Position numbers and translations under genes: made by a program
Shown here: one piece after another, positions 3,277-53,407 of the stretch
Layout: every line of letters begins with the position of its first letter
Position numbering within the stretch: position 1 is the first letter of the stretch
From: an uncultured cyanobacterium
GTDB taxonomy: Bacteria; Cyanobacteriota; Cyanobacteriia; Cyanobacteriales; Cyanobacteriaceae
Assembly (NCBI GenBank): GCA_963710605.1
Contig: CAVQBA010000006.1
Coordinates: forward strand, 96,001-160,000
Length of the DNA: 64,000 nt
Reading direction: 5' to 3'
Notes under the pieces: model-generated
What the model saw: the letters and a program-made list of their open reading frames with translations, nothing else
Databases searched by the model: none
What the model was told of the DNA's origin: nothing

Positions 3277-3489
3277 CGTGATTGAGAAAGACAAGACTTT
3301 ATGGCATTTTGGTTATATATATTGACAACGATCAAACTTTTATTGTTAAATTAATTTTGATCAAAATAACCTCTCTATCTAGTTATCATTTAGTAACAAG
3401 TATCTCAAAATCAAATCAACAAATTTTATAATCATCATTAATGTAAGAACTCATTTTTGAGACTTAAATTAATCATCAAAATTATTACC

Positions 3490-4882: not shown

Positions 4883-5796
4883 ATGTCATATCTAGACGAA
4901 CTAAGAAAAGGTAGAAGTAAAGCTCAAGTTGCCTATCAAGATTTCATACTTCATACAAGAGCAAATAAAGATGGTTTGTTTTGTTTTTTTGAAGGTAAAG
5001 ATAACGTTTATTATATACCCAGAATAAAAAGATTTACTAACAAATATCATTCTATTCATTGTGGTGGAAGAGAGAAAGTTTTAAAGGTATATGAATTGAT
5101 TAATCATCATCGAGAATACGATAAATATAAGAAAGCATTTTTGATCGATCGAGATTTTAATTCTCCTTTATCACCTCCCAATCCAGATATTTTTGAAACA
5201 CCTTGTTATTCTATCGAAAATTTTTATGTTTCTGTTAATGTTTTTCAAGAAATTATTAAAAATTACTTTTATTTATCAGAAATTAGTCAAGAATTTGAAA
5301 TTTGCCTTCAATTATTCAAAGAAAGACAAAAAGAATTTCATCAAGCTGTTATTTTATTTAACGCTTGGTATGCGTGCTTGATAGATAAAAAAAAGAAACA
5401 GGATTACAAACGGGTGTTAATTTATGCGATAAATTACCGAAAGGATTTGTTGAGTTTAAATTAGAGAAAATAACTCAAAAATATAATATTGAAACGATAA
5501 ACAATCAATTTACTAACGCATTAGAAATTTCAGAAGATATTCTGCAAGAAAAAATTAATAAATTTACATCTTGCGAGCAAAGTAAAGTCTTTAGAGGTAA
5601 ATATGAAATGGAATTTATGTTAAAAATTATTGAGTTGATTTTACAAGATTCTTTAAAAAACAAGAAATATATAAAATGTAAAATAAAATCTCTATTTGCT
5701 GATAAAATAAGTAATGAACAAGCGTTAACTATTTTTTCGGATTGTGCTGAAACACCTAAAGTTCTTGAAGAGTATTTAACTACGATTATAAAATAG
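4883..5796 (+). CDS. DUF4435 (TOPRIM-like) protein, PARIS AriB-like; frameshift in the poly-A run near 5390
   Basis: CFFEGKD, CGGREKV, IDRDF, TPCYSIENFY; the shifted frame KETGLQTG...FRGKYEMEF joins ORF 5608..5796. Confidence 0.8.
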
Positions 5797-12284: not shown

Positions 12285-13581
12285 TCAAATACCTAATTTT
12301 TGAAAAACCACATCCAAATTTTGTAAATGTTCTTTAGGATCAAAACAAGTATTAATTTCGAGTTCTGATAATAACTCTTTTACTTGCTCATTTTCTTCAA
12401 TTAGTTTACGGAAATTGCCATTAGTTGTATTCCATGCTTGATGGGCGCAACCTTGCACTACACTATAAGCTTCTTCCCGACTCATACCTTTACCGACTAA
12501 AGCCAATAATACTTTTTGACTAAATATTACTCCACCATAGACATTCATGTTTCTTTCCATATTGTCTGGATAAACCAACAGATTTTGCACCAAATTAGTG
12601 GTTTCTTTCAGCATAAAATGAATCAAAATGCAAGTATCAGGTAAGATAACTCTTTCGACTGAACTATGAGAAATATCTCTTTCGTGCCACAAAGCGACGT
12701 TTTCTAAAGCGGCGACGGCGTTACCTCTAATAATTCTCGCCATACCCGTAATTCTTTCACTACGAATGGGGTTACGTTTATGGGGCATTGCTGATGAGCC
12801 TTTTTGTTTTTTCAGAGAAATATTCTTCTACTTCTAAAACATCGGTACGTTGCATATTACGCACTTCAACCGCAAATCTTTCTAAGGAGGCGGCGAGTAA
12901 AGCTAATTGTTGCACAAATTCTGCGTGACGATCGCGCGATATTACTTGAGTGGATGCTGTATCTGGTTCTAATCCTAATTTAGAACAAGCGATCAATTCT
13001 ACACGAGGATCAATATTAGCATAAGTACCGACAGCCCCAGAAATTTGCCCGACTGCTATATCTTTACGTAAACGAACTAATCGCTTACGATTACGACGCA
13101 TTTCTGCTAACCAACCTGCTAACTTAAAACCGAAGGTAATTGGTTCTGCATGAATACCATGCGATCGTCCTACCATGATAGTATAACGGTGTTTTTGGGC
13201 TTGATGACGAATAGCTTGAATTGTTTCTTCTACACATTCAAGGATCAAATTTAAACTAGCTACCATCTGTAAAGCAAGGGCTGTATCTAGCATATCAGAG
13301 CTAGTCATGCCTAAATGAATATAACGACCTGCATCTCCTACATATTCATTGACGTTAGTTAAAAAAGCAATTACATCGTGGCGAACTTCTGCTTCTATTT
13401 CTAAAACCCGATTAACGTCAAAATCAGCTTTAGCTTTAATTTCTTCTACTGCTTCGGTGGGAATTTTGCCTAATTCTGCCTGTGCTTCACATACAGCTAT
13501 TTCTACTTCTAACCATGTTTTTAAACGATATTCATCTGTCCAAATCGAACCCATTGCGGGTAAAGTGTAGCGTTCTATCAC
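12285..13581 (-). CDS. purB: Adenylosuccinate lyase; apparent frameshift near 12810
   Basis: MIERYT, RHDVIAF, HLGMTSSD, GRSHGIHAEP; the (S)SAMPHKRNP signature is split across frames. Confidence 0.96.
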
Positions 13582-32726: not shown

Positions 32727-33794
32727 ATGGTGTTTACTGCTAAGTATCAAAAATATAGTTTAAAATTTAAACGTCCTAGTGGTACTTCTCGTGGCATAAT
32801 GACCACTAAAGATACTTATTTTGTTTTCCTTAAAGATAGTAATAATCCTAACAAAATTGCGATCGGTGAATGTGGTTTATTAAAAGGATTAAGTCACGAC
32901 GATCGACCTAACTATGAAACTAAACTACAACAAGTTTGTCAGCAAATCAAACAGATTAGATCACTAGAAGGAATCAATCGTTTGTGTTTGAGTTTGTTAG
33001 ATTACCCTTCGATTCGTTTTGGAGTAGAAATGGCGTTTCAAGATTTAGTAATGGGTAGCCAACGTATTTTTTACGATAATTATTTTACTCAAGGAAAACC
33101 AATCCCGATTAATGGTTTAATTTGGATGGGTGAAATTGAGTTTATGCGTCAGCAAATTATCAAGAAAATAGAAAGTGGTTTTAGTTGTTTAAAATTAAAA
33201 ATAGGGGCGATCGATTGGGAAACGGAGTTACAATTAATAGCAAGTATTCGTCAAGAATTTTCAGCCAATGACATTGAAATTAGAGTTGATGCTAATGGTG
33301 CTTTTTCTCCCTCCACTGCTTTAGAAAAGTTAGAGCTTTTAGCAAAGTACAATTTACATTCGATCGAACAACCGATTAAACAAAATCAATGGCAAGAGAT
33401 GGCTTTATTGTGCGATCGAACTCCTTTACCAATAGCCTTAGATGAAGAACTAATTGGCATCAACAATCCAGAAGAAAAAGATAAATTAGTAAACTTTATT
33501 TCACCGCAATACCTAATTTTTAAACCTAGTTTAATTGGTGGTTTTAAAGCTACTCAAGAATGGATAGATATAGCAAATGAAAAACAAATCCCTTGGTGGA
33601 TAACCTCAGCATTAGAAAGTAATATTGGATTAAATGCGATCGCTCAATTTACAGCTAATACCAACAATAAAATGCCACAAGGATTGGGTACGGGGCAGTT
33701 ATACACAAATAATATCGACTCTCCTTTAGAAGTAAAAGCAGGACATCTTTACTATCGCCCAAACCTAAAATGGAATTTATCTTCTTTACACTAG
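32727..33794 (+). CDS. menC: o-succinylbenzoate synthase (enolase superfamily)
   Basis: KLKIG, RVDANG, EQP, ALDEEL, TSALES, GLGTG. Confidence 0.88.
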   Translation: MVFTAKYQKYSLKFKRPSGTSRGIMTTKDTYFVFLKDSNNPNKIAIGECGLLKGLSHDDRPNYETKLQQVCQQIKQIRSLEGINRLCLSLLDYPSIRFGVEMAFQDLVMGSQRIFYDNYFTQGKPIPINGLIWMGEIEFMRQQIIKKIESGFSCLKLKIGAIDWETELQLIASIRQEFSANDIEIRVDANGAFSPSTALEKLELLAKYNLHSIEQPIKQNQWQEMALLCDRTPLPIALDEELIGINNPEEKDKLVNFISPQYLIFKPSLIGGFKATQEWIDIANEKQIPWWITSALESNIGLNAIAQFTANTNNKMPQGLGTGQLYTNNIDSPLEVKAGHLYYRPNLKWNLSSLH

Positions 33795-34097: not shown

Positions 34098-37000
34098 ATG
34101 ATAGAAAATACCAATAACAATGAGATTATTATCGAAATTTCAAAAAATCTTAAGAAAAAACAAATTGAGCTGATTAAAATAATGTCAGAAGATAAAATCA
34201 AAATAGATTCAAGTATTTCGATTTTATCTGAGTCTCCAAAAGAATTGATTAAAAATTCAACAAAAAATGTAAAAACTAGAATTATTAATTTACTTTACAA
34301 ACTGGAAAAACAAGAAATAGTCAAATCAGAAAATAATATATTTAGCTTAACTGAGTTAGGTCAAAATATTGCTGAATATTTAGAGAAAAATCAAATTCTG
34401 AATAAAGAAAAAAGAAGCTCTTCCCGTCAACTTCAAAAACAAGAAGTTCAAAAAAAAAGGAATGAATTTCTTGAACTATATAAACAAGGCTTGAGTTATC
34501 AAGATATAGGTAATAAACATCAAATTTCTAGAGAAAGAGTTAGACAAATCTTAATAGACAATCCTACTTTTCATGAATATAGAGAAGAACAAGAATTAGC
34601 TAAAATTCAAGCCCAAGAAGAAAAAGAAAAACAAGCTGAAGAAAATTTTTACGAACGAAGTATTGCTTTTCTTTATCCAGAAAAAGTCGATCTGCTCTGG
34701 GATTATGAAAAAAATGGAAATCTTCAACCTGATGAAGTTATCGCAGGAAGTGTAAGTCAATACATATGGCTCAAATGTCCTCTCGATCGATATTCTTGGA
34801 AAAAAAAACCTAACGATATTACAACTAGTTGGTCAAGATATGGAACAAGTGGTTGTCCCAAATGTGCTGGTAAAACAAAAAAAATACAACAAAGACCAAA
34901 ATTAAAAGATGCTTATCCTGATTTTGTCCAGCAATATTGGGATTATGAAAAGAATGATGAATTAAATATTTATCCAGAAAAAGTTAAAACTGGTAGTAAC
35001 AAAAAAGCATGGTTTAAATGTTCTGTTGATGGCAATGAATGGGAAAGGATAATTCATTCAATGGTGGCTCAAAATTGGTCAAAAGGTAATGGTGGTTGTA
35101 GTGTTTGTAATGGTACTCAGGATAGAAAAAAAAGTAAGTGGACAAGAGCTAATCCTGTGGCAGTAGATTTTTCTGAAGAAGTGGCTAAATATTGGCTTTA
35201 TGAAAAAAATAATGAATTAAAGCTCAATCCTAATAAATTAACAACTGGTTCTAAGAAAAAAGCATGGTTCAAGTGTCCTCTCGATCAACATGAATGGGAG
35301 GCATCTATTACAGCTATTGCTAAAACTTCTTGGAAAAAAGGTAATAGTGGTTGTCCTGCTTGTAGAGGATGGATTGCGGCTGAAACTACTTCCTTAATTG
35401 CTCTTTATCCCGAATACATACAACAATATTGGGATTATGAAAAAAATGATTGATTAGGTTTGTATCCAGATCGATTAACAAAAGGTACTAATAAAGAAGC
35501 ATGGTTTAAATGTTCTATAGATGATTACGAATGGAAAGCTCGAATTTATTCAATTATTAAAGGTTCATGGAGTGTCGGAAATAGTGGTTGTGTTAGATGT
35601 AGCAATCGTTGGACAATTGAAGCAATCCGTCAATTTGTAGCTAGTTTAAAAGAACATATTCCTAACTTAACACCAGCAGAACGTTATAGAATATTTGAAC
35701 AATCAGGTATTTTAAATACTCAAAATAAAGAAGGTCTTACAATTGTAAAAGATATTATTAAAGGTAAATTATCGGGAGCTAAATTAGGCGGATTTCTCAG
35801 AGGGGAAGAAACAAAAGAAGATAACTTAGAAAATAGTTTTGATAATAATCTAAATGCTGATGAAGAATTACAAACCGTTGATGATGATCCTTCTCATCTT
35901 TCCAAACATACTTTTCATAAAGATACTGAAAATGCGGAAGAAGAAACTATAGAAAATGAAGATTTACCAAAAATTCATGTACAAAAAAGCCTAGAATTTC
36001 TTAATAGTAAAGTAGTTGCATCTTCAGATCGAGAAGCAGTTGATTTCTTTATTGCTTCCCGAAAAAATCGCATTTGGGCAGAAGTTTTTGAAGATGAGTC
36101 CGCAGTCGAAGGTTTAGAAGAATTTACCGATGAAGGTTATGGCTATCAAGTAAGAGATCAATTTCTTGATGAATATTATCAAGCAAAAAATATGCAAACT
36201 CCTCAAGGTTGGGGTTTTAAAATCAATGGGAAAATAACACCTCCTAACTTAATGCAGAAAGTCTCTGCGGTGCGATTAAATAATGCCAAAAGAATGCTCA
36301 ATTTATCTTTAACTGGAACAGGTAAAACCATTGGTGGAATTTTAAGTAGTCGTATTATTGATGCTAATTTAACTATTATTATTTGTCCTTTTGATACTGT
36401 TAGTAATTGGCATAGTGAAATCAAAAAAGTTTTCCCCGATAGTAAAGTTACAACTAAAAATTTTAGTCCTTATTGGGAAACTATAAAAAATGGACATCAT
36501 TATATGATTTTTAACCATGAAATGTTCCAACAACCCAATACAGCAAGTCGTATTCGTCAACTATTAGAAAAATATCAAATTGATTTAATCATTGTTGATG
36601 AAATTCACAAATGTAAACAAAGAAGTCAAAATCCTTCTAAACGCCGTCAAATGATTATGGGATTAATCACCAATGCCAATGAAATTAATCCTAATCTTCA
36701 TGTTTTAGGGATGAGTGCCACACCAATTATTAATAATCTCAAAGAAGGCAAAAGTTTAGTTGAATTAGTCTCAGGAATAGAAAGAAGTGATTTAGGAGAA
36801 AAAGCCACAACTAATAATTGTATGAAGTTACATCAGGCTTTTGTAACTTTAGGCATTCGCTCAAGGGTAAAACCTAAAATTAAAATTGATAGAATCCAAA
36901 TTCCTATTGATATTTCACATTTAGTTGATGAAATTAGAGAGGAAGGAAAATCTGTTCTCAAAATGGAGCAAATTTTAACCCGTGCTAAAATACCGACTAT

Positions 37001-38171
37001 TTTAGAGCAAATACGACCTAAAACTATTATTTATACTCATTATGTAGAAAGTATAGTTTCTCAATTAAAAGAAGCAATTGAAACTGAAGGTTGGACAGTT
37101 GGCTTTCATTTAGGAGGCAATAAAAGCGGTTATGATGGTTTCGTTAATGGTTCAACGGATATTTTAATTGCTAGTAGTGCAATGGCTGTAGGGGTTGATG
37201 GTTTTCAGAAAGTTTGTAGTCGTTTAATTTTAAATATTCCACCTTGGACAAGTGCCGAATTAGAGCAATTAGAAGGGCGTTTAAATCGCCAAGGACAAAC
37301 ATCTAATATTTTAACAATTGTTATGCCTGTGACTTATGGTCACGATAAAGAAGAATATTGGAGCTGGGATGAAGGAAGATTGGCACGATTAGAGAATAAA
37401 CAAACTATAGCTGATGCGGCGGTTGATGGTATTATTCCTGAAGGGCAATTAAGAACTCAATCTCAAGCTTTTCGTGATTTGAGAAAATGGCTAGAAAGAC
37501 TTAAAACAGGAAAACAAAAATCAATTATCAGACCTAAAATATTTGTACCTTTACCTGAAGACAATCCGAGTGATGTTAAACGTCGTTATGCTCGTTATGG
37601 TGATTTTAGCAAGATGAATGCTCGTTGGAATACAAGTTATAGTCATACACTTTACCAACGTTTACAAGAAAATCCTGAAGAATGGATGCAATATCATACA
37701 CTTTACCAAGAAGCCAGAAAAACATGGAATCTTATTCCTTACAAAGAAACGATTAAATGGCTCGAACAACGTTCAGATTTAATAGTAGGAGACTTTGGTT
37801 GTGGAGAAGCTTTTATCGCTAAAGAATTAGCAGATAAACATACAATTCATAGCTTTGATTTCATTGCAATTAATGATTCTGTAACAGAATGTGATCTGAA
37901 AAATGTACCATTAGAGGATAATTGTCTGGATATAGCAATCTTTAATCTATCTTTAATGGGTTTAAATTACGAGCAATATATTATTGAAGCCTCCAGAACT
38001 TTAAAGTTAGATGGGCAACTTTGGATTTACGAAGCAATATCGAGAATCAAAGATATAAATAATTTTATTCAAAAAATTCAATTTTTTGGTTTTAGTATTA
38101 TCAAAAATATCGAAACTAACAAATTCATACATATTTGGGCAATTAAGTCAGAGTTTAAAAATTACAGTTAA
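34098..38171 (+). CDS. Multidomain protein: HTH (sigma r4-like), 4 DUF4379-type Zn-ribbons, SF2 helicase, RRP8/Methyltransf_8-like SAM methyltransferase; one reading frame with an in-frame TGA at 35451-35453
   Basis: LSYQDIGNKHQISRERVRQI; four WxYEKN..P..G..WxKC..W..GCxxC repeats; TGTGKT, DEIH, MSATP, QLEGRLNRQGQ; DFGCGEA..HSFDF..VPLED..IFNLSLMG..EASRTL; ORFs 34098 and 35460 share a frame. Confidence 0.85.
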
Positions 38172-38213: not shown

Positions 38214-38783
38214 TGGGAAATTGAGTTACAATTAATACCTAGTATCCGTCAAGAATTTTCAGCCAATGAAATTGAAATTAGAGTCGATGCTAATGGTGCT
38301 TTTTCTCCCTCCACTGCTTTAGAAAAGTTAGAGCTTTTAGCAAAGTACAATTTACATTCGATCGAACAACCGATTAAACAAAATCAATGGCAAGAGATGG
38401 CTTTATTGTGTAGTAAAACTCCTTTACCGATAGCATTAGACGAAGAACTAATCAGCATCAACAATCCAGAAGAAAAAGATAAATTAGTAAACTTTATTTC
38501 ACCGCAATACCTAATTTTTAAACCTAGTTTAATAGGTGGTTTTAAGGCTACTCAAGAATGGATAGATATAGCAAATCAAAAACAAATCCCTTGGTGGATA
38601 ACCTCAGCCTTAGAAAGTAATATAGGACTAAATGCGATCGCTCAATTTACAGCTAATACCAACAATAAAATGCCACAAGGATTGGGTACGGGGCAGTTAT
38701 ACACAAATAATATCGACTCTCCTTTAGAAGTAAAAGCAGGACATCTTTACTATCGTCAACAACTTCAGTGGGATTTATCTTAA
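38214..38783 (+). pseudogene. menC: 5'-truncated duplicate of the menC 3' half (33216-~33783)
   Basis: Near-identical nucleotide blocks at offset 4998; lacks the N-terminus and the catalytic KxK. Confidence 0.93.
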
Positions 38784-43480: not shown

Positions 43481-44086
43481 ATGAAAAAAAAGAACAAGAT
43501 TTGGAGAACTTTAGCCGTAGCTGTGATTAGTTTACCATTACAACTATTAATTACTCCTAAATCGATCGCTCAACGACAATTACCCCCAAATGTAGTGATT
43601 CAACTAATGTATGAAGGAATAGCTAATCTTCACGGTAATCGTGCTATTCCTCGTGTTTATAAACCAATTCGACCAGGAACAATCACACGATGCGGTAGAA
43701 TGATACCGGGTAATGCCGCTTATTGTAAATTAGACCACTCAATTTATATTAGTACTGATATGGTAAGAAGAGCTTACCGATACGGTGATGCGGCTTTAGC
43801 TTATATTGTCGGACATGAATATGCTCATGCGATGCAAAATGTTTATGGCTTTAATAACAGTAAGAGTGCTTTATCTGAACTACAAGCTGATTGCTTAGCT
43901 GGTTTTTATATGGCGGCAATACCTAATATAGTTTTCGATCGACGAGATATGCAAGAGATTCGTTCATTTGCTTACGATTTAGGTGATGAAAATGTTTGGT
44001 CAGAAGATCATCATGGTACACCCAGTCAAAGATTAAAAGCTGTTACTCTTGGTTTGACAAGCAAAAATATATCTGCTTGTTTTTAA
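43481..44086 (+). CDS. Secreted neutral zinc metallopeptidase (YpfJ-like)
   Basis: Signal peptide, NAAYC, HEYAH, ELQADCLAG, HGTPSQR. Confidence 0.85.
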   Translation: MKKKNKIWRTLAVAVISLPLQLLITPKSIAQRQLPPNVVIQLMYEGIANLHGNRAIPRVYKPIRPGTITRCGRMIPGNAAYCKLDHSIYISTDMVRRAYRYGDAALAYIVGHEYAHAMQNVYGFNNSKSALSELQADCLAGFYMAAIPNIVFDRRDMQEIRSFAYDLGDENVWSEDHHGTPSQRLKAVTLGLTSKNISACF

Positions 44087-44113
44087 GTTTCTAATTTGAA
44101 AATAATGACTAAA

Positions 44114-44161
44114 CAAAAAAAGAGAGTCAGTTAAGACTCTCCTCTTTCGTTCTTTTTTTTT
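44114..44161. terminator. Probable bidirectional intrinsic terminator
   Basis: A-tract, agagtc-agttaa-gactct hairpin, T-tract, between convergent genes. Confidence 0.6.
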
Positions 44162-44163
44162 AA

Positions 44164-44236
44164 TACCCCCAAGGGAATTCGAATCCCTGTCGCCTCCGTG
44201 AAAGGGAGGTGTCCTAGGCCTCTAGACGATGGGGGC
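44164..44236 (-). tRNA. trnE: tRNA-Glu (anticodon TTC), CCA not encoded
   Basis: Reverse complement GCCCCCATCGTCTAGAGGCCTAGGACACCTCCCTTTCACGGAGGCGACAGGGATTCGAATTCCCTTGGGGGTA. Confidence 0.98.
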
Positions 44237-44289
44237 TTAGGTATTTATGCTTACTGAGTTTTGTTTAACTTTTGTTAGGCACATTTATT

Positions 44290-44318
44290 AATATAACGAA
44301 CATTTTTTGAGTTGTCAA
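44290..44318 (-). promoter_or_regulatory. sigma70 promoter of tRNA-Glu
   Basis: TTGACA-N17-TATATT on the minus strand. Confidence 0.8.
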
Positions 44319-44488
44319 CAAAAATAACTTTTTTTCTGATTTATGCCCAAAATTACTGACCAAAAAAGAGGATTTGGAGTCCACATACCATAAAAATAGA
44401 TTGAACTTAAGGTATGGATGGTTTAACCATTCTCAACAATATCAACTTCCACTTTGAATACTTTTGTTGACTGACAAACATATTTTGT

Positions 44489-44701
44489 TTAATATGCTAA
44501 TGTCTCTAAGGTAGATCTTAAATATTGCTTAACTTGTTCTTCTACAGTTGTCTCAAGTTGATTTTCTTTTTGCCAACTTTTAAAGCCTGAGCTTTGAGAA
44601 ATAGCTTGTTGTAGGTTTTGCCAAATTTCTCGATCGTGCAACGCCGAGCTTTCAGCTCTATCACCGTTGGCTATGTTCGTCGAAGGAGTAGGTACAATCA
44701 T
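44489..44701 (-). CDS. Small conserved cyanobacterial protein
   Basis: IWQNLQQAISQSSGFKSW...YLRSTLETLAY. Confidence 0.75.
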   Translation of the reverse strand: MIVPTPSTNIANGDRAESSALHDREIWQNLQQAISQSSGFKSWQKENQLETTVEEQVKQYLRSTLETLAY

Positions 44702-44969
44702 AGGTATTTGTGAATAATTTATTTATGTTAACTAGAATAACCTAATTCTAACTTTTATGATTGTGTTCTCAAATACACATTTTTGAAAATATCGATCGTA
44801 TATCAATATATTGACTTAAATCGATCGTGATTTTGCTCTTGATATATTATTGATTAAATACCTTAAAATACAAATGTATTAAAAAGTTTGACGAGATCAA
44901 TTTTTCATTATTTACTTTTAGGTTCAAACTGTTAGTTAGGTAGATAATATATTCAGCGGCAATATTTAT

Positions 44970-45015
44970 CTTCAATATTGCATAAATTCTAGTTTGCGTC
45001 GGGAAGAATAATTAA
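44970..45015 (+). promoter_or_regulatory. Repeated leader motif, copy 1 (46 bp identical to 49568-49613; diverged copy at 45557-45596)
   Basis: cttcaatattgcataaattctagtttgcgtcgggaagaataattaa, ~24 nt before the ATG in each case. Confidence 0.8.
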
Positions 45016-45039
45016 GGTTAATTCAAAAATTGAAGATTA

Positions 45040-45480
45040 ATGAGTGATATCGAACAACAAAGAAAGGAAGCCCAAGACGAAACAACTCCACCAAAACAAT
45101 TACAAGAGTTATCGGTGTCACCTGATTCTCTAACTCGTCAATATGTAGCTCAAAATCCCAATACACCGACACAAACTCTTCTAAATTCAAGCGATGAATT
45201 TCCTCAACAAGTCTTAAATAACGATGTTATTCCTTTACTTTTAATTGAAACTCCTCAGCTTTTTTCTTGTCCATTTCGTTTCGATTTGGTACACGTAATT
45301 CGTGTTACCAGTCGGTTGATGAAATGTTTAGGATGGACAGTCGAAGACGGAAAACTGTATTTAATGCAAACCTATGGCCAAAAATCTCGAAATTTACTTT
45401 CTGATGAGCAGTTATTAGAATTTATGAGGATGCTTCAAAATCTCAAAGATAGTCAACAAAATAATAATACCTGTTCGTAG
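45040..45480 (+). CDS. LRV (leucine-rich variant) repeat protein with an unrelated C-terminal domain
   Basis: EAQDETTPPKQLQEL, VAQNPNTP; C-terminal LGWTVEDGKLYLMQTYGQKSRNLLSDEQLLEF. Confidence 0.75.
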   Translation: MSDIEQQRKEAQDETTPPKQLQELSVSPDSLTRQYVAQNPNTPTQTLLNSSDEFPQQVLNNDVIPLLLIETPQLFSCPFRFDLVHVIRVTSRLMKCLGWTVEDGKLYLMQTYGQKSRNLLSDEQLLEFMRMLQNLKDSQQNNNTCS

Positions 45481-45620
45481 TAACTCCTTAGTCATTGTCT
45501 TCGTTAAAAAAGAAAGCCTAAAGGCTTAACTACAAACTTTCTTGTAAAAGTTTAGATGTTGCATAAAATATTATTTAGCTCAGGAAGAATAATTAAAGTT
45601 AATAAAAAAATAGAAGATTA

Positions 45621-47351
45621 ATGAACGATATCGAACAGGTAAAAAAACTAATTACACAGCCAAAACTAAGTCTTTTTTCTGAACAATTACGAGAAATTGC
45701 TCAAAACCCTAATACTTCTGCTGAGATATTTACTCTATTAGTTGAAGAATTTAATAAAACAAATAGTTTATTTTATCAAGAAATTACGAAGTCGATCGCT
45801 CTCAATCCTAATATACCTAGCGAACTTCTTGAAAAACTACTGATGTATCATTCCGTTGAGGTATTGAATAACCCGACTATTTTGAGGAGATTAAAAGAGC
45901 AACCCAATTTACTTTATTTGCTCGAAACAAATTATTCTAGGGTTAAAACTCTAATTGAATATAATTATGATGTACCTAACTGGTTTCTAGAAAGATTAAC
46001 TAATTTAAAAAACTTTACCGTTAAAAAAGAATTCGATCGAGAAATTACTACTATAGCCCAACAAATATTAGAGGCAAAAAACGAAAGTACACCACCAGCA
46101 AAATTGGTAGAATTAGGTGAAAAATCAACTTTTAGTATTCGTCGATTTGTTGCTCTCAATCCTAACACACTTGTCGATACTTTGATTGAAGTAGCTTATG
46201 CTTTTCCTAAAGAAGTATTAAATAATCCTGTTTTTGATTTATTAATTTTAGAGGATGCAGATTTCATTAAAAGAATACCGCCCGAGACTTTTATCGAATT
46301 ACTTTGTCAAGAAGAAATGACATCTAGTTTTCTTGCTTTAGCGATTGAACATCCTGAAGATAGAGTAAAATCTCATATAGCAATAGATCCTGCAACATCA
46401 CCTAAAACATTACAAAGATTATTAGAAAACATCTTAGCAGGAAAAGGTTCGCTTTCATTATCTAGGTCAATTGCTAATAATCCGAATATATCCACTGAAA
46501 CATTACAATTGTTAACCGATCGAAGTAAAGATGTAACTTTGGCTAAACATACAATTTATTGTTCTAAGATTAAAATTCCTACTGAAACGATCGAACAATT
46601 GATTGAAAATGGGGATGAAAAATTACTTGAAGCGATCGCACTTAATCCTAATACTCCAACACATATAATAGAAAATTTATGTTCTTCTTATATAAATAAA
46701 AGCTATACAAATAAAAATTACAAAATTATTTATGCAATTTCTCAAAACCCGAAGACAAATAGTCAAATTTTAGAATCGATAACTAATAAATATATTTCAG
46801 ATAATAACCCGCATTTAGTTAGAGATTTATTACTGAATATTGCTAGTCATGATAATGCTTCTTCACAAACTCTTGAAAGGTTAGCAGATTATCCCGATGA
46901 GTGGGCAACTGAAGCTGTTGCGGTAAATTCTAATGTTTCTGAAAAAACGATCGAGAAAATACTAATAAAAGTTGTTAATTCATTATTTGCTCAAAAATCT
47001 CAAGAAGAAAAACTAGCTTTATTGGTTTTAGCATTTGATGAATTGCAAAAAGCAAAAAATACTCAAACATCTATCTCTTTATTGGAACAATATACTAAAC
47101 ATCGCTGGCGTGCAATTCGTTTGGCAGTTGCTAAAAATCCGAGTACGCCTGATTCTATACTTCAACAACTGGCTAACGATGGATATCCTAAGGTTGCTGA
47201 ATGGGTTGCCAAACATCCGAATTGTTCTAGCTACACTTTAGACATTCTCAATCAATACCCTGCAACTTACATACACCAGATAGCCTTAAAACATCCTAAC
47301 ATCTCAAGACTAACCAAACAAAGATCTTACAGTGGAAAATCATATACATAA
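45621..47351 (+). CDS. LRV/HEAT-repeat protein
   Basis: Many (I/V)AxNPNT repeats. Confidence 0.85.
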   Translation: MNDIEQVKKLITQPKLSLFSEQLREIAQNPNTSAEIFTLLVEEFNKTNSLFYQEITKSIALNPNIPSELLEKLLMYHSVEVLNNPTILRRLKEQPNLLYLLETNYSRVKTLIEYNYDVPNWFLERLTNLKNFTVKKEFDREITTIAQQILEAKNESTPPAKLVELGEKSTFSIRRFVALNPNTLVDTLIEVAYAFPKEVLNNPVFDLLILEDADFIKRIPPETFIELLCQEEMTSSFLALAIEHPEDRVKSHIAIDPATSPKTLQRLLENILAGKGSLSLSRSIANNPNISTETLQLLTDRSKDVTLAKHTIYCSKIKIPTETIEQLIENGDEKLLEAIALNPNTPTHIIENLCSSYINKSYTNKNYKIIYAISQNPKTNSQILESITNKYISDNNPHLVRDLLLNIASHDNASSQTLERLADYPDEWATEAVAVNSNVSEKTIEKILIKVVNSLFAQKSQEEKLALLVLAFDELQKAKNTQTSISLLEQYTKHRWRAIRLAVAKNPSTPDSILQQLANDGYPKVAEWVAKHPNCSSYTLDILNQYPATYIHQIALKHPNISRLTKQRSYSGKSYT

Positions 47352-47372
47352 ATCAAATTAGACATAAAAGTA

Positions 47373-49409
47373 ATGAATATCGAACAACAAATAAAAGAAG
47401 CTCAAGACGAAACAACGCCACCAGAAAGATTACGAGAGTTAGCAGTTTCCTCTAATTATCTTGTTCTTGAAAGTATAGTCAAAAATCCTAATATACCACC
47501 TGACGTTATACAAAATTTGGCTGGGCAGTTTCCTCAACAAGTTTTTGAGAATCCTGCTTTAGAATTATTATTATTAGAAACTCCCGATTTACTTTTTAAA
47601 ATAAACTCTTACTCTCTCCAAACAATAGCCCAAACAACTACTTGTGTTAAAACTCTAGCGATATTAGCTAGAAATGAAGATGACAGAGTTCGTGGGTATG
47701 TAGCACGAAACCCAAAGATAACGATCGAAATTTTAGAAAAATTGGCTCTCGATACAGGTACGAATATCAGACAAGCAGTAGCAATAAACCCTCGTACTTC
47801 GGTTAAATTATTACAACAATTAGCTTTCGATGCAGATTTTCATGTCAGAGAAGCTGTAGCACAAAACCCTCATATTTCAATTGAATTATTACAACAACTA
47901 GCTCTCGATTCTAGCGGTTGGGTAAAAGGTTATGTTGTCAGCAATCCTAAAATTCCAATTGAATTATTACAACAACTAGCTTTTGATACTAATGCCGATG
48001 TCAGACAAGTAGTAGTATATAACCCCAAGGCAACACCCAAAATTTTAGAAAAATTGGCTCTTGATACAGATGCGGGTGTCAGACAAAGAGTCGCACAAAA
48101 TCCTCAGACAACAACTGAAATCTTAGAAAAATTAGCTCTTGATTGGAATTATAAAGTCAGACAAATAGTTGCACGAAACCCTCAGATAACGCCTGAAATA
48201 TCCAAAAAATTGGCTCTCGATGGGAATCATAAAGTAAGAAAAGCAATAGCACGAAATCCTTATATTTCAATTAAAATCTTACAACAAATAGCTCTTAAAC
48301 CTTTGCAAGACTCAACAATACCAGTAAAAGTAGCGATTAATTTTCAGACCTCAACTGATATATTAGAACTACTAGCTAGGTATTACAGTCAACGTGTAAG
48401 ACAAATGGTAGCAAGAAATCTTAAGACACCAATAAAAACCTTACAACAACTAGCTCTCGATTCGGATTGTGTAATAAGAAAAGAGGTGGCTTTCAATCCT
48501 CATACTCCAAGTAAAACCTTAATAAAATTGGCTCGTGATTCTGAGGCGAAAATTAGAGAAATCATTGCTCTGAATCCTAATACTTCAACTGAAATCTTAA
48601 AAAAATTGGCTCGTGATTCTGAGAAACAAATAAGGGAAATCGTCGCACTTAATTCTAATATCACGATCGATATTTTACAACAATTAGCTCGTGATTCTGA
48701 ACATACAGTCAAAGTTGCTGTAGCGTTACATTCAAAAACAACGATCGATACTTTACAACAATTAGCAGATGATTTGCATTATAGAGTAAGAGTAGCGGTG
48801 GCTAGAAATTCTAATACCACAACCCAAATATTGGAACAATTAGCAGATGATTATCACGAGCGAGTAAGAATGGCTGTTGTTAAAAATTCTAATACAGCGA
48901 TCGAAATATTAGAAAAATTAGCTAATGATTCTGATAGTGGAGTAAGAATTGCTATTACCCGAAATCTTAATAAGCCGATAGCTTTCGATTCTGATTATGA
49001 GGTAAAATATACACTTACAAAAAATACTTTGACCACAAGTCAAATGTTACAACAAGCGGCTAAACATAGTAGCTATGAAGTGAGGATTGAAATTGCTAAA
49101 AATCCAAACGTCACGCTAAAAATATTAAAACAACTAATCTCAGAACAATTAGCTGAAGATCGTTATGGTAAAGTTAAAACGCAAGTGGCACAACATCCGC
49201 TCACAACAGTAGAAATGTTAGAAACATTAGCAAATGATTATCATAGCGGAGTAAGAAAAGCTGTCGCCAGAAATCCTAACACACCGATCGAAATATTACA
49301 AGCATTATCTGGGGATGAAATTGCTTATGTAAGTAAACACGCTGAAGCTAATTTCTTTCGATTAATTATGATTAAGAAAAATGTTTGTTCGTCTAATACT
49401 ATAAGTTGA
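47373..49409 (+). CDS. LRV/HEAT-repeat protein with regular ~24-aa repeats
   Basis: LxQLAxDxxxxVRxxVAxNP repeated about 20 times. Confidence 0.88.
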   Translation: MNIEQQIKEAQDETTPPERLRELAVSSNYLVLESIVKNPNIPPDVIQNLAGQFPQQVFENPALELLLLETPDLLFKINSYSLQTIAQTTTCVKTLAILARNEDDRVRGYVARNPKITIEILEKLALDTGTNIRQAVAINPRTSVKLLQQLAFDADFHVREAVAQNPHISIELLQQLALDSSGWVKGYVVSNPKIPIELLQQLAFDTNADVRQVVVYNPKATPKILEKLALDTDAGVRQRVAQNPQTTTEILEKLALDWNYKVRQIVARNPQITPEISKKLALDGNHKVRKAIARNPYISIKILQQIALKPLQDSTIPVKVAINFQTSTDILELLARYYSQRVRQMVARNLKTPIKTLQQLALDSDCVIRKEVAFNPHTPSKTLIKLARDSEAKIREIIALNPNTSTEILKKLARDSEKQIREIVALNSNITIDILQQLARDSEHTVKVAVALHSKTTIDTLQQLADDLHYRVRVAVARNSNTTTQILEQLADDYHERVRMAVVKNSNTAIEILEKLANDSDSGVRIAITRNLNKPIAFDSDYEVKYTLTKNTLTTSQMLQQAAKHSSYEVRIEIAKNPNVTLKILKQLISEQLAEDRYGKVKTQVAQHPLTTVEMLETLANDYHSGVRKAVARNPNTPIEILQALSGDEIAYVSKHAEANFFRLIMIKKNVCSSNTIS

Positions 49410-49567
49410 AGCTACTTTTGATTGATTTTATTTTATGTCGGTTTTGTCATTAAAAATAAGGCATAAATATTTATAACTATAGTCGATCGATCGTATGACT
49501 TAACTTTTAAATTGTAAGTTAGACTGACTCGATCGATCACAATTAAAAAATTTGTCGGCAACATCTA

Positions 49568-49613
49568 CTTCAATATTGCATAAATTCTAGTTTGCGTCGG
49601 GAAGAATAATTAA
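49568..49613 (+). promoter_or_regulatory. Repeated leader motif, identical copy
   Basis: 46/46 identical to 44970-45015. Confidence 0.8.
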
Positions 49614-49636
49614 AGTCGATCGAAAACTGAAAATTA

Positions 49637-50947
49637 ATGATAAATATCGAACAACAAAGAAACGAAGCACAAAATGAAAGCATATCACCACAAAGATTAC
49701 GAGAGTTAGCAGTCTCAGAAGACTTTCTTACCCTTGAACATATAGTTAAAAATCCTAATGTACCACCTGATGTATTACAAAATTTAGCCGGACAATTTTC
49801 CGAACAGACTTTTAAGAATCCTGCGATCGATTTATTGTTACTAGCAAACCCTGATTTACTCTCTGGAATTAGCTCTGACTCTCTTGAAACAATCGCTCAA
49901 ACAACGGCTTCAACTAATATTCTGGCTGTATTAGCAAGAAATCAGCATTGGAGAGTTCGTTGGGGAGTAGCAAAAAATCCAGAGACGACAATAGAAATCT
50001 TAAAACAATTAGCTCAAGATTTTAATCCTTATTCAAGACAAGAAGTAGCAAAAAATCCAAAAATTGATGAAGAAATAATTACAAAAATTCTTTTTTACAA
50101 ACATTCTATTGAAGAACTTAACGCTACTCATACGAAAGGAAAACGACCTATTACACTAACTATAGATGATAAAGAATATCTAATTGAACCATGTGCCAGT
50201 TTACATCTAGATGATAATCCTCTGGGTAATGTTGCTAGTAATCCTAATTTATCTTTAGATATTATTGAGCAGTTAGTGTCAAACATACTTAAAATATTAG
50301 AATGGGCATGGGGTATAAATTTTGTTACAGGTATTGTTTCAAATCCAAATATTCGTGTTTCTACATTAAGATGGTTATCAGGAGAAGAATATTTAAAAAT
50401 TCACAATGATGCTGTATTTGAATATCATATAAATAGTCTTGCATCTTATAAAGCTAACTGCGATCCTTTTCTGAAAAAAAAATCATATCAAGAAATTGTT
50501 AGTTATCTAAAAAAAGATTGGAGCGTACAAGAAGGTGCTAGTAATTCTGCGATGAGATTAATTGGTCAATTATACTGGGCAATTGTACAAAATCCAACCA
50601 CTCCCGAAGATTTAAAATCTGATTTATTACTTAAATTAACCAGCGATAAGATAATCGTTTCAGAAGTTCGTTATCACATTGCTAAATCTTTGGATGTACC
50701 AGTAGAAATCCTTAGAAGATTAGCAAAAGTCGATCCTCATCCTCATAAAGCATTGGCGGAAAATCCTCATACTCCTAGTGATGTTTTAGGACAACTAGCA
50801 AATCATAAAGATAGTGATATGCGTAAAAAAGTGGTACAACATCCTAGTACCTTACCTGAAACCTTAGAAAAATTGTCTGAAGACGAAGATGAACAAGTTA
50901 GTAAAGCGGCAAAAGCTAATATTTCCAGATTAAAACTTGCAAACTAG
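49637..50947 (+). CDS. LRV/HEAT-repeat protein
   Basis: First ~125 aa paralogous to 47373..49409; NP-type repeats; unique central region. Confidence 0.85.
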   Translation: MINIEQQRNEAQNESISPQRLRELAVSEDFLTLEHIVKNPNVPPDVLQNLAGQFSEQTFKNPAIDLLLLANPDLLSGISSDSLETIAQTTASTNILAVLARNQHWRVRWGVAKNPETTIEILKQLAQDFNPYSRQEVAKNPKIDEEIITKILFYKHSIEELNATHTKGKRPITLTIDDKEYLIEPCASLHLDDNPLGNVASNPNLSLDIIEQLVSNILKILEWAWGINFVTGIVSNPNIRVSTLRWLSGEEYLKIHNDAVFEYHINSLASYKANCDPFLKKKSYQEIVSYLKKDWSVQEGASNSAMRLIGQLYWAIVQNPTTPEDLKSDLLLKLTSDKIIVSEVRYHIAKSLDVPVEILRRLAKVDPHPHKALAENPHTPSDVLGQLANHKDSDMRKKVVQHPSTLPETLEKLSEDEDEQVSKAAKANISRLKLAN

Positions 50948-51114
50948 TTTAATCCCTACAATTGCATGATCAGTGATTTTGAAGTTCATGTCAATGAACG
51001 GATTCTATTAGCCTTGCAATGATAATTCAAGGCGGAATATAAGAATAACAGAATTAATTACGTTAACACCAAATAAAGAAAGCCTAAAGGCTTAACTACA
51101 AACTTTTTTTAACC

Positions 51115-52117
51115 ATGACACCGACACAACTTAAAAAATATCTTAATAAACTCGTTAGCCAAAACATCAAAATTAGTACCATGATTTGGGGTGCACCCGG
51201 TATTGGTAAATCTAGCATCGTATCTCAAATCACCGAGCAACACGATATTGATTTTGTCGATGTTCGTCTTTCTCAACTCGCCCCTACAGATTTACGTGGT
51301 TTACCTGTCGCTGAAGATGGTATTTCTAAATGGTTTCCTCCTGAATTTTTGCCTAGAGAAGGTAAAGGTATCCTTTTTATGGATGAATTAAATATGGCAC
51401 CTCCAGCTTTACAAGGGGTTGCTCAACAACTTAATTTTAGACAGATGTGTTGGTAGTTATAAAGTCCCCGAAAACTGGTTTGTCTGGGCGGCGGGAAATC
51501 GCAAAGAAGATAGGGCGGCGGTATTCGAGATGCCTGCACCTTTAGCTAATCGTTTTTTACATCTTAAGGTAGAGGCTGATTTTGAGAGTTTTAAAATTTA
51601 TGCTTTAGAAAAACAAATACACGAACAAGTAATTGCTTTTTTATCATTTCGATCGACATTATTACACAAACTCGACCCCCAACAACCTGCATGGTGTTCA
51701 CCTCGCTCTTGGGTGATGGCAAGTCAACTTCATTATGTCGGTTTACCGATCGCTTCTGCGGTAGGAGAAGGTGCGCAAGCTGAATTTAATGCTTTTGTCA
51801 CTCTTTACGAAACTCTACCTAATTTAAGCCCTATTTTAGAAGGAAAAGGAAGCTCTATTAAATTTCCGAGTGAGCCATCAGTAAGATATGCTACCACCAC
51901 TGGTTTGACAGTTAGAGCTGAAAATGCAAATCAAGCCTATAATGCCTTTAATTGGCTTAGCGAAAAAGCGACTGCTGAATGGGTACAGTTGTTTGCAGTG
52001 GATATGTTCCGTCAAATGCGTAATAAGGGGCAAATGGGAGCATTAGCGAAGTTAGTTAAGCAAGATAGTCAATTACAAAAGTTCTTGAAAGATTTCCAAG
52101 AGTTAATTGGATTTTAA
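51115..52117 (+). CDS. MoxR-like AAA+ ATPase (AAA_5 type); apparent frameshift near 51430
   Basis: WGAPGIGKS, PTDLRGLP, ILFMDELN, AAGNR, PLANRF, SPRSW. Confidence 0.87.
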
Positions 52118-52139
52118 ATTAATTGATAATTGACAATTG

Positions 52140-52495
52140 TACCAAATCTAAAAAATATTACGATAGATTTATCCCCCCAACCCCCATCCCCCTCTATCCC
52201 CCTTCGCAAGGGGGAGGATGCAAGGATGCTTCGCTTTTATTTTTTGGGGCTTATAAGCTATAAGTGTAGTTTTAATTATTGAAAATCGTCTTAGAGATAA
52301 AAAATTAACTAGTAAAGGTAAAGGTGTGTTTATACTTTTATCGTTCATCTTTCATTTTTGTTTAGTTGGGTTTCGTCTTTTTGGTATATAGCGATTTGTA
52401 TTTCAATATTGTCATAACTCAACCCAACCTACTGATTACTTTATCTTCCCCCAGAGTTGGGGGATTGAGGGGGCAGAGGTTTGAATTTGGTATTA
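52140..52495. repeat. Cluster of REP/MITE-like elements
   Basis: cccccttcgcaaggggg hairpin; gttgggtttcg...ctcaacccaacctac (also at 32279-32345); cccccagagttgggggattgaggggg. Confidence 0.7.
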
Positions 52496-52504
52496 ATTAC
52501 GAAT

Positions 52505-53407
52505 TCACAAAGCATCAATTTTAGCTAAAAATTCTTGAGTGAGTTGATAAAATGCTTTTGAGCCATTTGATTTAGGTGTAGTTAAAACAACGGGCATAAA
52601 TAAATCAACGGCTTTAGCAACATTAACATCCATGGGAATATCTGAGCTAAACATTTGATCGATCGAAAAATCTTGTTTAATTCTACGTTTAACTTGATCA
52701 TAATATTTATCATAACGACCAAATAAACCTGCTTCTGAGAGAATAAAAACAATCCCTAACAATTGTAAATTTAATGGTTTGTCTTCTTGATGACTTTTTT
52801 TAAGTTTTTTGACTCTTCTTTCTAAAAGCTGAATACCTACCAAAGAAAGAGGTTCGGGGCGAGCGGGTAAAAGATAAAAATCACTAGCGGCGATCGCACT
52901 ACGAGTTAATAGATTATAACCGGGCGCACAATCCATGATTACAAAATCATAATAATCAACAACAGGTTGTAAAATATCGTAAATTAAAAATCGTTCAAAA
53001 TTATTCCAAACAGATTCAAAATTTTCGGTTTTCTCCTCATCAACTGCTTTTTGATGTAGCATCTCGGAGACTAAGTATTCATCATATAATTCAATATCGC
53101 CGGGTAATAGTTCTAAATTACTCAAGCCACAAATAGAAGGAGTAATCAAATCTCCGATATTTAATTTAGCATAAGGATTAGGTTTGATGGCTAAATCTAG
53201 TAGATAACTTAAAGTCTTGCGTTTTTTACGTAACTTTCCAAACTCGTGAGGCGGTAGCAAACTTAAAGTGGCACTAATTTGAGCATCTAAATCTAGTACT
53301 AATACTTTTTTGCCAAAATTTTTCGCTAAAGAAGTGGCTAAATTAACAGTGAGGGTGGTTTTGCCCACTCCTCCTTTCATATTAACTGTACTGATAATAT
53401 ATCCCAT
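52505..53407 (-). CDS. ParA/MinD-family ATPase
   Basis: NMKGGVGKTT, DLDAQ, MDCAPG; start taken at MGYIIS. Confidence 0.9.
   Translation of the reverse strand: MGYIISTVNMKGGVGKTTLTVNLATSLAKNFGKKVLVLDLDAQISATLSLLPPHEFGKLRKKRKTLSYLLDLAIKPNPYAKLNIGDLITPSICGLSNLELLPGDIELYDEYLVSEMLHQKAVDEEKTENFESVWNNFERFLIYDILQPVVDYYDFVIMDCAPGYNLLTRSAIAASDFYLLPARPEPLSLVGIQLLERRVKKLKKSHQEDKPLNLQLLGIVFILSEAGLFGRYDKYYDQVKRRIKQDFSIDQMFSSDIPMDVNVAKAVDLFMPVVLTTPKSNGSKAFYQLTQEFLAKIDAL

Follow-up and report, generated by a model that had tools for sequence, protein, structure and literature searches.

The window analysed here is a stretch of 64,000 nucleotides (nt) of contig CAVQBA010000006.1 from an uncultured cyanobacterium (assembly GCA_963710605.1; genome of 3.93 Mb, designated G000 among its relatives). 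The assembly consists of only 7 contigs and is rated 85% 'complete'. Between positions 44970 and 52117 the window carries, on its forward strand, an array of four tandem genes with a repeated leader element, and the array ends at the gene of an AAA+ ATPase. The four genes are members of a large family of alpha-solenoid (LRV-repeat) proteins in cyanobacteria, marked by one copy of a module here called LEAD. Genes of this family typically lie in sets of one to seven beside a two-gene core that encodes the ATPase and a protein with a zincin-like and a vWA domain. The copy in the window is a lineage-specific, partly disrupted instance of this set.

The four genes of the array

The four genes encode proteins of 146, 576, 678, and 436 amino acids (aa) that begin with the peptides MSDIEQ, MNDIEQ, MNIEQ, and MINIEQ, respectively, and in genes 1, 3, and 4 the start peptide continues as Q..EAQ.E..P..L.EL. 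The open reading frames (ORFs), called by a simple first-start rule that leaves N-terminal offsets approximate, confirm these features as they were given in a first-pass annotation of the locus. Gene 1 (45040–45480) encodes LEAD at residues 1–85, followed by a C-terminal domain of about 55 aa resembling the slr1353 family. Gene 2 (45621–47351) has a degenerate LEAD without its tail at residues 21–101, a full LEAD at residues 143–226, and then weak LRV repeats, and looks like a fusion of two family members. Gene 3 (47373–49409), which begins 22 nt past gene 2 and lacks a leader, combines LEAD at residues 1–85 with about 20 LRV repeats of 26 aa, corresponding to a 78-nt period in the DNA. Gene 4 (49637–50947) encodes LEAD, a few LRV repeats, and a central part without a family match.

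The first-pass annotation had called all four genes LRV paralogues. This held for genes 2, 3, and 4, which exceeded the Pfam cut-off for LRV (PF01816, 21.6 bits) with 53.1, 209.8, and 68.9 bits. Gene 1 showed a weak likeness to LRV_2 (PF25591), 18.7 bits against a cut-off of 27, and is a family member through LEAD alone. Its C-terminal 55 aa are 47% identical to the C-terminus of the genome's own true slr1353-family member, encoded at C6:764353–765336. Against the family model NF058667 gene 1 scored 52.7 bits, below the cut-off of 100, and covered only model positions 182–237. The possibility that gene 1 is a truncated copy was ruled out by an orthologue in a Xenococcaceae genome (L075), where a gene of 136 aa lies directly upstream of the ATPase gene and is 47% identical over 135 aa.

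In a search of 5.8 billion proteins, the nearest non-self matches of gene 4 were 26% identical over the full length, or 47% identical over the N-terminal third. All of these relatives were labelled hypothetical or LRV, and most of their clusters were singletons. Against plasmids gene 4 gave three weak records.

The LEAD module and its family

LEAD is a module of about 85 aa, as a rule N-terminal. Its first half corresponds to about two LRV turns and overlaps Pfam LRV_2, and its second half, the tail, with the pattern FPxxLLxNPxxxLLLLENPxL, is the unique part. The profile was built from N-termini and, like the other profiles and hidden Markov models (HMMs) of this work, was home-made. The tail occurs once in each array protein, at residues 47–85 in gene 1, 188–226 (internal) in gene 2, 46–85 in gene 3, and 47–86 in gene 4, with independent E-values from 2.5e-20 to 9e-20. 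Among the 108 LEAD ORFs found in 80 related loci (described below) the tail was present in 98, singly in 97 and doubly in one; by crude ORF calls, its start fell among the first 100 residues in 93 of these 98.

A search of 1.84 billion representative proteins with the LEAD profile gave 21,182 matches at E ≤ 1e-3, 10,177 at E ≤ 1e-10, and 1,936 at E ≤ 1e-30, totals which take in ordinary LRV proteins that match the first half. Within the best 150 matches, the best stretch reached profile position 79 or further in 121, and in 117 of those it lay within the first 250 residues. In this genome there are many further LEAD genes; ten full-length LEAD matches lie in open frames.

The part that follows LEAD varies, in agreement with the earlier impression of a shared N-terminal part and a variable remainder. 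The payloads comprise LRV repeats, pentapeptide repeats, and the slr1353-like C-terminal domain of gene 1. In the related genome G018 (L034 2483–3640, minus strand), LEAD is fused to pentapeptide repeats (PF00805, 170 bits) in place of LRV repeats, in a gene divergent from that of the ATPase. Pfam was scanned with 105 of the 106 distinct LEAD ORFs, the omitted one having run off its locus. LRV/HEAT-type repeats were found in 99 and no family at 1e-5 in 6, and in none of the 105 did any stretch of an enzymatic or effector domain reach significance by itself. Scores for XPC-binding, DUF2336, Ribul_P_3_epim, FliG_M, and Tnp_DNA_bind, with 0–1 individually significant stretch, were judged to be repeat noise.

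The ATPase and its zincin-vWA partner

The gene at the end of the array (51115–52117) encodes an AAA+ ATPase of the AAA_5/MoxR-like, midasin-like type. The first-pass annotation had named it a MoxR-like ATPase. By its AAA_5 score it does fall in this group, and what had been missed is that the frame is split by a one-base insertion into 51115–51456 (113 aa) and 51419–52117 (232 aa). The N-terminal fragment contains a Walker A motif, GAPGIGKS, and a Walker B motif, ILFMDE, and scored 22.5 bits for AAA_5 against a cut-off of 22. An intact orthologue reached 31 bits against the same cut-off and 26.1 for AAA_3 (MoxR proper), just under the cut-off of 27. The best PDB match of the ATPase profile was the AAA domain of midasin (6or5, E 3e-8).

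No gene for a vWA partner lies next to the ATPase gene in the window, where a ParA gene on the opposite strand follows. The partner, also overlooked at first, is encoded elsewhere in the genome, at C7:131400–132746, as a protein of 448 aa with significant matches to DUF2201_N (E 2.3e-39) and DUF2201 (E 1.8e-18). It is followed by two LEAD genes, C7:132918–134273 and C7:135094–135834. In relatives the DUF2201 gene stands directly 3' of the ATPase gene; the two core genes have thus come apart in this genome, each with LEAD neighbours. A gene of the Uma2 family (putative restriction endonuclease-like, PF05685; L016 8375–8938, minus strand) is situated between the two C7 LEAD genes.

DUF2201 proteins consist of a zincin-like and a vWA domain parted by a long acidic low-complexity linker, and carry no C-terminal effector. 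In an alignment of 70 of them, H72, H76, and H81 were invariant and E73 near-invariant (HExxH..H), and the residues of the metal-ion-dependent adhesion site (MIDAS), D324, S326, S328, T383, and D409, were near-invariant. The AlphaFold model had a mean predicted local distance difference test score (pLDDT) of 80, with the linker (residues 161–228) disordered. Residues 291–448 matched the vWA fold in the PDB with a Z of 13.5, and among the matches were the MIDAS domains of MDN1 (Z 11.6) and Rea1 (Z 11.5) and the vWA domain of NorD (9qh8, Z 11.5). Both PDB fold searches were filled by vWA matches, and the support for the zincin N-domain consists of Pfam and the invariant HExxH. By Pfam, alignment, and vWA fold, the DUF2201 protein combines a zincin-like HExxH with a vWA domain and a complete MIDAS, as in a pair of genes known from phages.

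Both core proteins matched phage families in PHROG, the ATPase with an E-value of 9e-82 and DUF2201 with 5e-80, and tblastn with DUF2201 matched 235 phage records. Genes 1 and 4 had no PHROG family match. In cyanophage S-TIM5 the gene order is Hsp20, ATPase, DUF2201, and structural protein, and no gene of that locus is annotated as LRV. Phages carry the same core pair, apparently without LEAD genes. The S-TIM5 DUF2201-type protein (L127 4971–6119) and PHROG 1314 are labelled 'HNH endonuclease' in RefSeq and PHROG, a name that does not fit their domains.

Linkage of LEAD genes to the core in other genomes

The first-pass annotation had proposed the co-occurrence of LRV arrays with this ATPase clade as a check, and the linkage was indeed found. 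The comparison was based on the best 80 of 157 stretches from an ATPase alignment search; these loci are mutually related. Of those labelled with a taxon, nearly all are cyanobacteria, from many orders, and two are labelled Actinomycetota and Deinococcaceae; several have no taxon label. DUF2201 was present in 68 of the 80 loci, and 9 of the 12 loci without it have less than 500 nt downstream of the ATPase gene. At least one LEAD gene was present in 57 of the 80 (1–5 per locus). When only the 49 fully flanked loci were considered (5 kb or more upstream and 6 kb or more downstream), DUF2201 was found in 47 and LEAD in 36. The number of LEAD genes in these 49 loci was 0 in 13, 1 in 15, 2 in 11, 3 in 6, 4 in 2, and 5 in 2.

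The regions further out in the same loci served as an internal control. Within 4 kb of the core, 101 LEAD genes lay in 524 kb, against 7 in the 567 kb beyond, that is, 1.93 versus 0.12 per 10 kb or an enrichment of about 16-fold. The LEAD gene was on the ATPase strand in 97 of 108 cases. As to position, 67 were upstream of the ATPase gene, 21 between or overlapping the core genes (for example in Crocosphaera), and 20 downstream. Array size varied between species from zero to seven genes, in line with the diversifying set proposed in the first pass, and the largest set was that of genome G022, with seven tandem LEAD genes followed by the ATPase gene and then DUF2201.

Whole genomes gave a similar picture. 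Among 31 relatives, full LEAD was present in G000, G001 (a genome 67% complete), G009, G018, and G022. The ATPase was found in G000, G004, G009, G010, G018, and G022, and G028 gave a weak match. Strong DUF2201 matches were confined to the first six of these genomes. An intact ATPase together with DUF2201 was seen in G009, G018, and G022; G000 has the pair as well, with the frameshifted ATPase. LEAD is missing from G004 and G010, where the ATPase genes are 5'-truncated and lack residues 1–84 and 1–182, respectively. In a sample of 150 genomes from the phylum, 57 of them from one family, an orthologous ATPase was present in two, G022 and G151, both with LEAD; in G151 the LEAD gene lies about 4 kb from the ATPase gene on the same strand. 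Four genomes of the phylum sample had only distant ATPase paralogues and no LEAD. As the genomes compared share ancestry, these counts do not amount to statistical tests.

It could be argued that LRV genes, being abundant in cyanobacteria, stand beside the ATPase gene by accident. The many LRV/LEAD genes elsewhere in this genome and the core loci without any would fit such a view. It is at odds with the 16-fold density difference within the same loci, the shared orientation, the co-occurrence of LEAD and ATPase at the genome level among relatives, and the presence of LEAD neighbours at both of the separated core genes here. We consider a chance neighbourhood hardly credible. The link is strong but facultative, the latter because of the LEAD-less core loci, including three genomes in which LEAD was found nowhere at E ≤ 1e-15.

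Comparison with known systems

Pairs of a MoxR-type ATPase and a vWA protein are known from several systems. As described by Kaur et al. (eLife 2020, PMC7159879), the vWA adaptor captures a client that the ATPase remodels, and four types of MoxR-vWA ternary conflict systems are distinguished by their third component: VMAP, iSTAND, FtsH, and beta-propeller. The locus studied here resembles these in having an AAA+ MoxR-like ATPase, a vWA protein, and variable linked proteins, and in that both are frequent in cyanobacteria. A further likeness is an adaptor-like domain that occurs both next to the core and at other places in the genome, namely the effector-associated adaptor domains (EADs) of that text and LEAD here. 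It differs in its third component, an LRV solenoid with LEAD, and in its vWA protein, which has an N-terminal zincin domain and no C-terminal effector domain. 'LRV' is absent from the part of PMC7159879 at hand, and Pfam scans of the neighbours, made without a VMAP or iSTAND model, showed none of the four known third components.

The first-pass annotation had suggested that the array is a diversifying set of binding or sensor proteins in such a conflict system, and under such a reading the LRV proteins would sense invaders and work with a MoxR-vWA engine, like the ternary systems of Kaur et al. 2020. Several observations are of the kind expected under this proposal: the patchy distribution (4 of the family's 18 genomes and 2 of the 150 genomes of the phylum sample), the variable copy number, the fast divergence of the proteins, with gene 4 and its distant matches as an example, the core pair shared with phages, and the analogy with the EADs of PMC7159879. 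On the other hand, PADLOC-DB 2.0 gave no match for DUF2201 or the four LRV proteins, and its sole result for the ATPase was a P-loop match to IetA, weak at 17.7 bits. Scans for families in the surroundings of the array showed no neighbouring defence genes. In addition, several old paralogue lineages have been kept in more than one genus, a pattern that suits distinct subunits better than the turnover of an arms race. As no effector domain was found in the 105 LEAD proteins and PADLOC had no match for the LRV and DUF2201 proteins, the conflict role is unsupported, and we regard it as distinctly unlikely.

The two-gene core has the same architecture as the MoxR plus metallopeptidase-vWA pair of jumbo phages, for which a role in virion assembly and in chaperoning with peptidolytic processing of clients has been proposed (Iyer et al. 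Viruses 2021, PMC7824862). What the cellular version adds is the LEAD-LRV arrays, which have no LRV-annotated counterpart in the S-TIM5 locus.

Midasin (Rea1) is related through the AAA_5 match to 6or5 and the MIDAS fold matches. The MIDAS of midasin grips the UBL domains of Ytm1 and Rsa4 and binds an acidic residue of the client. A constant small domain thus acts as a handle on differing clients, a role that LEAD may share. Midasin differs in being one giant eukaryotic polypeptide instead of two bacterial genes, its clients carry a UBL domain and not the helical-repeat-like LEAD, and the zincin domain has no counterpart in it. The CbbQ-CbbO and NorQ-NorD pairs likewise join an ATPase to a vWA/MIDAS adaptor, and the vWA domain of NorD was among the fold matches. 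These two pairs act on a single metabolic enzyme, in contrast to the one to seven paralogous repeat proteins found here, with no linked enzyme.

With the LRV and LRV_2 proteins of Pfam, the array shares the repeats of genes 2–4 and the first half of LEAD. The tail, once per protein and near the N-terminus, sets LEAD apart, and a link to the ATPase or DUF2201 was not found in the family descriptions. In the literature outside subscription journals and supplements, we found no description of LRV or LEAD proteins as MoxR-vWA partners and no characterisation of DUF2201.

The leader element

The array locus contains three copies of a leader element made up of box A (TTGCATAAA), a spacer of 15 nt, and box B (GGAAGAATAATTAA). 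Copy 1 (44970–45015) precedes gene 1 and copy 3 (49568–49613) precedes gene 4, and the two are identical in 46 of 46 positions. Copy 2, before gene 2 (45559–45596), is degenerate: boxes and spacing are kept (TTGCATAAA-N15-GGAAGAATAATTAA) and the spacer sequence is different. Both the identical leaders ahead of diverged coding regions and the degenerate copy had been noticed in the first pass. The longest identical run between the upstream regions of genes 1 and 4 is exactly these 46 nt. Its surroundings are much less alike, with 55% identity in the 100 nt upstream, 71% between the block and the ATG, and 69% in the first 150 coding nt. With an identity of 74%, the probability of a perfect 46-nt run is about 1e-6.

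In the 3.93-Mb genome the exact two-box pattern was found three times, always in the array locus. Loosening it to at most one mismatch per box added a copy before the broken, gene-4-like paralogue at C7:182898. There are thus four leader copies in the genome, each before a LEAD gene, and the element is not a generic dispersed repeat. One extra match to the loosened pattern, at C7:520907 on the minus strand, adjoins no known LEAD gene and is probably due to chance. About 1.2 Mb of loci from other genomes contained no match to the loosened pattern. Common to the four copies are TTGCATAAA, exactly 15 nt, and GGAAGAATA(A/G)TTAA, and the spacer sequence exists in one version in genes 1 and 4 and in another in gene 2 and the C7 paralogue. 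Since the boxes and the 15-nt gap are kept while the spacer sequence varies, boxes and spacing look constrained and the spacer sequence does not.

A related element, TTGCATAAATTATCA..N..GGATA, was found twice in G009, a genome of a different genus (L035 5017–5052 and 5640–5680). One copy precedes a LEAD gene by 71 nt and the other precedes a neighbouring 136-aa ORF by 90 nt, counted to the start codon, and TTGCATAAA-N15-GGA is invariant in all six copies, four here and two in G009. This 136-aa ORF is Cys-rich with a signal-peptide-like start and may be co-regulated with the system in that genus.

Several identities of the leader were considered. A structured RNA was rejected (fold z of 0.01, 0.33, and −0.49), and the sole Rfam match over window positions 44000–53000 was a tRNA, with none for the leader. 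The earlier remark that the leader does not fit canonical −35/−10 spacing holds, as the consensus sigma-70 scan did not pick the leader; TTGTAA-16-TAAAAT was obtained from gene 2's leader copy alone. A leader copy before the ATPase gene was likewise rejected, the local alignment score being 17 against a shuffle mean of 17.3. Most likely, the leader is a promoter with a 5' untranslated region (5'UTR) that was copied along by tandem duplication. Box A (TAAATT/TAAAAT, a TAnnnT) may be a −10-like element, and box B may be the start of the 5'UTR or an operator.

Growth of the array

A second repeat, H, of 38 nt contains a small hairpin, AAGCC-TAAA-GGCTT, and is present in only two copies in the genome, both on the forward strand. 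The first (45506–45543) follows gene 1 and the second (51072–51109) ends 5 nt before the start codon of the ATPase gene. A function as a forward-strand terminator was rejected, given the weak stem, the lack of a T-run directly after it, and a z of about −1.3.

The LEAD modules of genes 1 and 4 are 42% identical, against 100% for their leaders, and the nearest relative of gene 1's LEAD is in another genome (54%). Genes 3 and 4 (67% identical in LEAD) and the C7 paralogue form a recent clade specific to this genome, with 65–67% identity in LEAD, and gene 1 and the two C7 genes by DUF2201 belong to older lineages. Because of the 42% identity and the kin of gene 1 elsewhere, the identical leaders of genes 1 and 4 are best read as the trace of recent gene conversion over a short tract, and not of a whole unit that was duplicated recently. 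The leader of gene 1 is itself a mosaic, equal to that of gene 4 in its 5' part and about 92% like that of gene 2 from box B as far as the ATG.

The simplest history would start from an ancestral order of leader, gene 1, H, and ATPase gene and let the array grow by tandem duplication of the leader–gene–H unit, followed by divergence of the copies. Such a duplication would produce the junction observed, in which H is followed by a leader. Outside the array, C7:182898–184192 is a gene-4-like paralogue, 49% identical, with its own leader copy and an interrupted frame, and at C4:321820–322075 the remnant of a LEAD gene is interrupted by the in-frame stops TAA and TAG. Together these two show birth and death within the family.

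The first-pass annotation had offered another use for the leader, as an anchor for cassette exchange, and one could imagine that leader and H are recombination sites by which LRV cassettes are swapped into an expression site. The mosaic leader of gene 1, the identical leaders ahead of such different LEAD modules, and the two H copies bracketing the block of genes 2–4 could be taken in this sense. Yet there are just four leader and two H copies, each leader heads a full gene with its own start codon and not a silent cassette, and no recombinase, integrase, or invertible segment was found near the array. The boxed motif was also not found in the 80 other system loci, and the H-then-leader junction is what a simple tandem duplication would give. 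Tandem duplication and short gene conversion explain the layout, and we consider cassette exchange very improbable.

Disruption of the core in this genome

The ATPase frame breaks at QQL|ILDR, where alignment of three orthologues reveals one extra base in CTTAATTTTAGAC, near 51431–51436. Apart from this, the protein is 71–82% identical to intact orthologues (333–340 aa) and has no other defect. The site has neither a slippery nor a stop context and the three aligned orthologues lack the shift, for which reasons a programmed frameshift was judged unlikely. A similar break divides a purB-like adenylosuccinate lyase gene of the window (12285–12788 and 12778–13581, minus strand). Its two pieces, Lyase_1 and ADSL_C, share an overlap of 11 nt, and the junction is rich in A and C homopolymers. 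In view of this second split gene and of an assembly 85% 'complete' in 7 contigs, the ATPase frameshift may be an assembly indel; it is either that or a real mutation.

The system could be a defunct remnant in this genome, with a pseudogene for the ATPase, a dismembered operon, and LRV genes that are left over or act independently. The ATPase frameshift, the position of DUF2201 on another contig, the broken gene-4-like paralogue on C7, and the LEAD remnant on C4 would agree with decay, as would the truncated ATPase genes of the LEAD-less genomes G004 and G010 and the loss of two near-invariant LEAD residues in gene 4. This stands against an ATPase that is well conserved but for a single inserted base, a housekeeping gene split alike, which keeps assembly indels a live explanation, and ten full-length LEAD matches in open frames. 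We think it unlikely that the set is defunct. A remnant would in any case be compatible with the explanation favoured below.

Proposed role of LEAD

Our best explanation takes in the LEAD family with its ATPase/zincin-vWA core, LEAD as a handle, growth of the array by duplication, and disruption of the core in this genome through the ATPase frameshift and the location of DUF2201 on another contig with two LEAD genes. As a whole, we give it a probability of roughly 60%. Our confidence in its comparative and anatomical part, that is, the anatomy, family, linkage, and duplication history, is high. In the mechanism that we propose, LEAD would be the constant handle for the vWA/zincin co-chaperone and the ATPase. 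The vWA/zincin protein would recognise LEAD, the ATPase would remodel, assemble, or release the protein, and the variable solenoid or other payload would be the working surface. Because HExxH is conserved in DUF2201, processing of the N-termini of LEAD proteins by the zincin domain is also suggested. By analogy with the systems above, this scheme of binding, remodelling, and N-terminal processing is a tentative one, to which we give slightly less than even odds.

Some of the observations weigh against the explanation as a whole. Regarding the linkage, counts from mutually related loci are not independent, and the LEAD HMM was seeded partly with genes adjacent to the ATPase gene. Thirteen of the 49 fully flanked loci have no LEAD within 10 kb. 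When five genomes with a LEAD-less core were searched whole, LEAD was found elsewhere in two, and in three there was none at E ≤ 1e-15. Conversely, genome G032 of the phylum sample has LEAD without an orthologous ATPase, and at least five further LEAD genes of the present genome lie away from both core genes. Within the array, the ATPase frame is broken while the LEAD genes are open, so the LEAD genes may work here without the ATPase, and gene 4 departs from two near-invariant LEAD residues (FP to FS and LLLLE to LLLLA). For the leader as a promoter, the sigma-70 consensus scan returned 40 sites against 34 expected without picking it.

A bolder version is more speculative, and on balance we doubt it. 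In this version LEAD would be a recognition and pro-domain, gripped via the MIDAS site by a phage-related AAA+ ATPase and its zincin-vWA partner; the protein would be remodelled and perhaps clipped, which would license a repertoire of variable payloads, and the set would form a fifth, cyanobacteria-wide class of MoxR-vWA systems.

Other genes of the window

The tRNA gene found by Rfam (44164–44236, minus strand, 56.6 bits) stands between a Zn-metallopeptidase-like gene (PF04228; 43406–44086, plus strand) and the array, with about 730 nt separating it from the first leader downstream. The peptidase-like gene is missing in G001, a genome of the same genus, where the sequences that flank it here (83% and 71% identical) directly adjoin each other; that contig of G001 stops just short of the array. 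At 3457–4809 and 4883–5464 (plus strand), an AAA_15/AAA_21 ATPase is followed by a DUF4435 protein in a region of low G+C content (24–26%), which we take to be a two-gene pair of the kind often met in defence islands. Two MR_MLE_C pieces (enolase C-terminal-like; 32727–33794 and 38397–38783, plus strand) surround the region 34098–38171, which holds a DUF4379 zinc-finger gene and the gene of a 903-aa helicase (SNF2/ResIII) fused to a methyltransferase. This arrangement looks like an insertion into an MR_MLE gene or next to its duplicate.

Implications

MoxR-type ATPases and their vWA partners are common, and their clients are known in a handful of cases. Comparative genomics now points to a specific, very large client or adaptor family beside one clade of ATPase and vWA-zincin proteins, and thousands of 'hypothetical' LRV proteins gain a first context. 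If the proposal is true, a logic of adaptor plus variable payload would apply to a family with thousands of members and no described function. In the present genome, the arrays appear to grow by tandem duplication that carries the promoter along and by short gene conversion, and they also fall apart.

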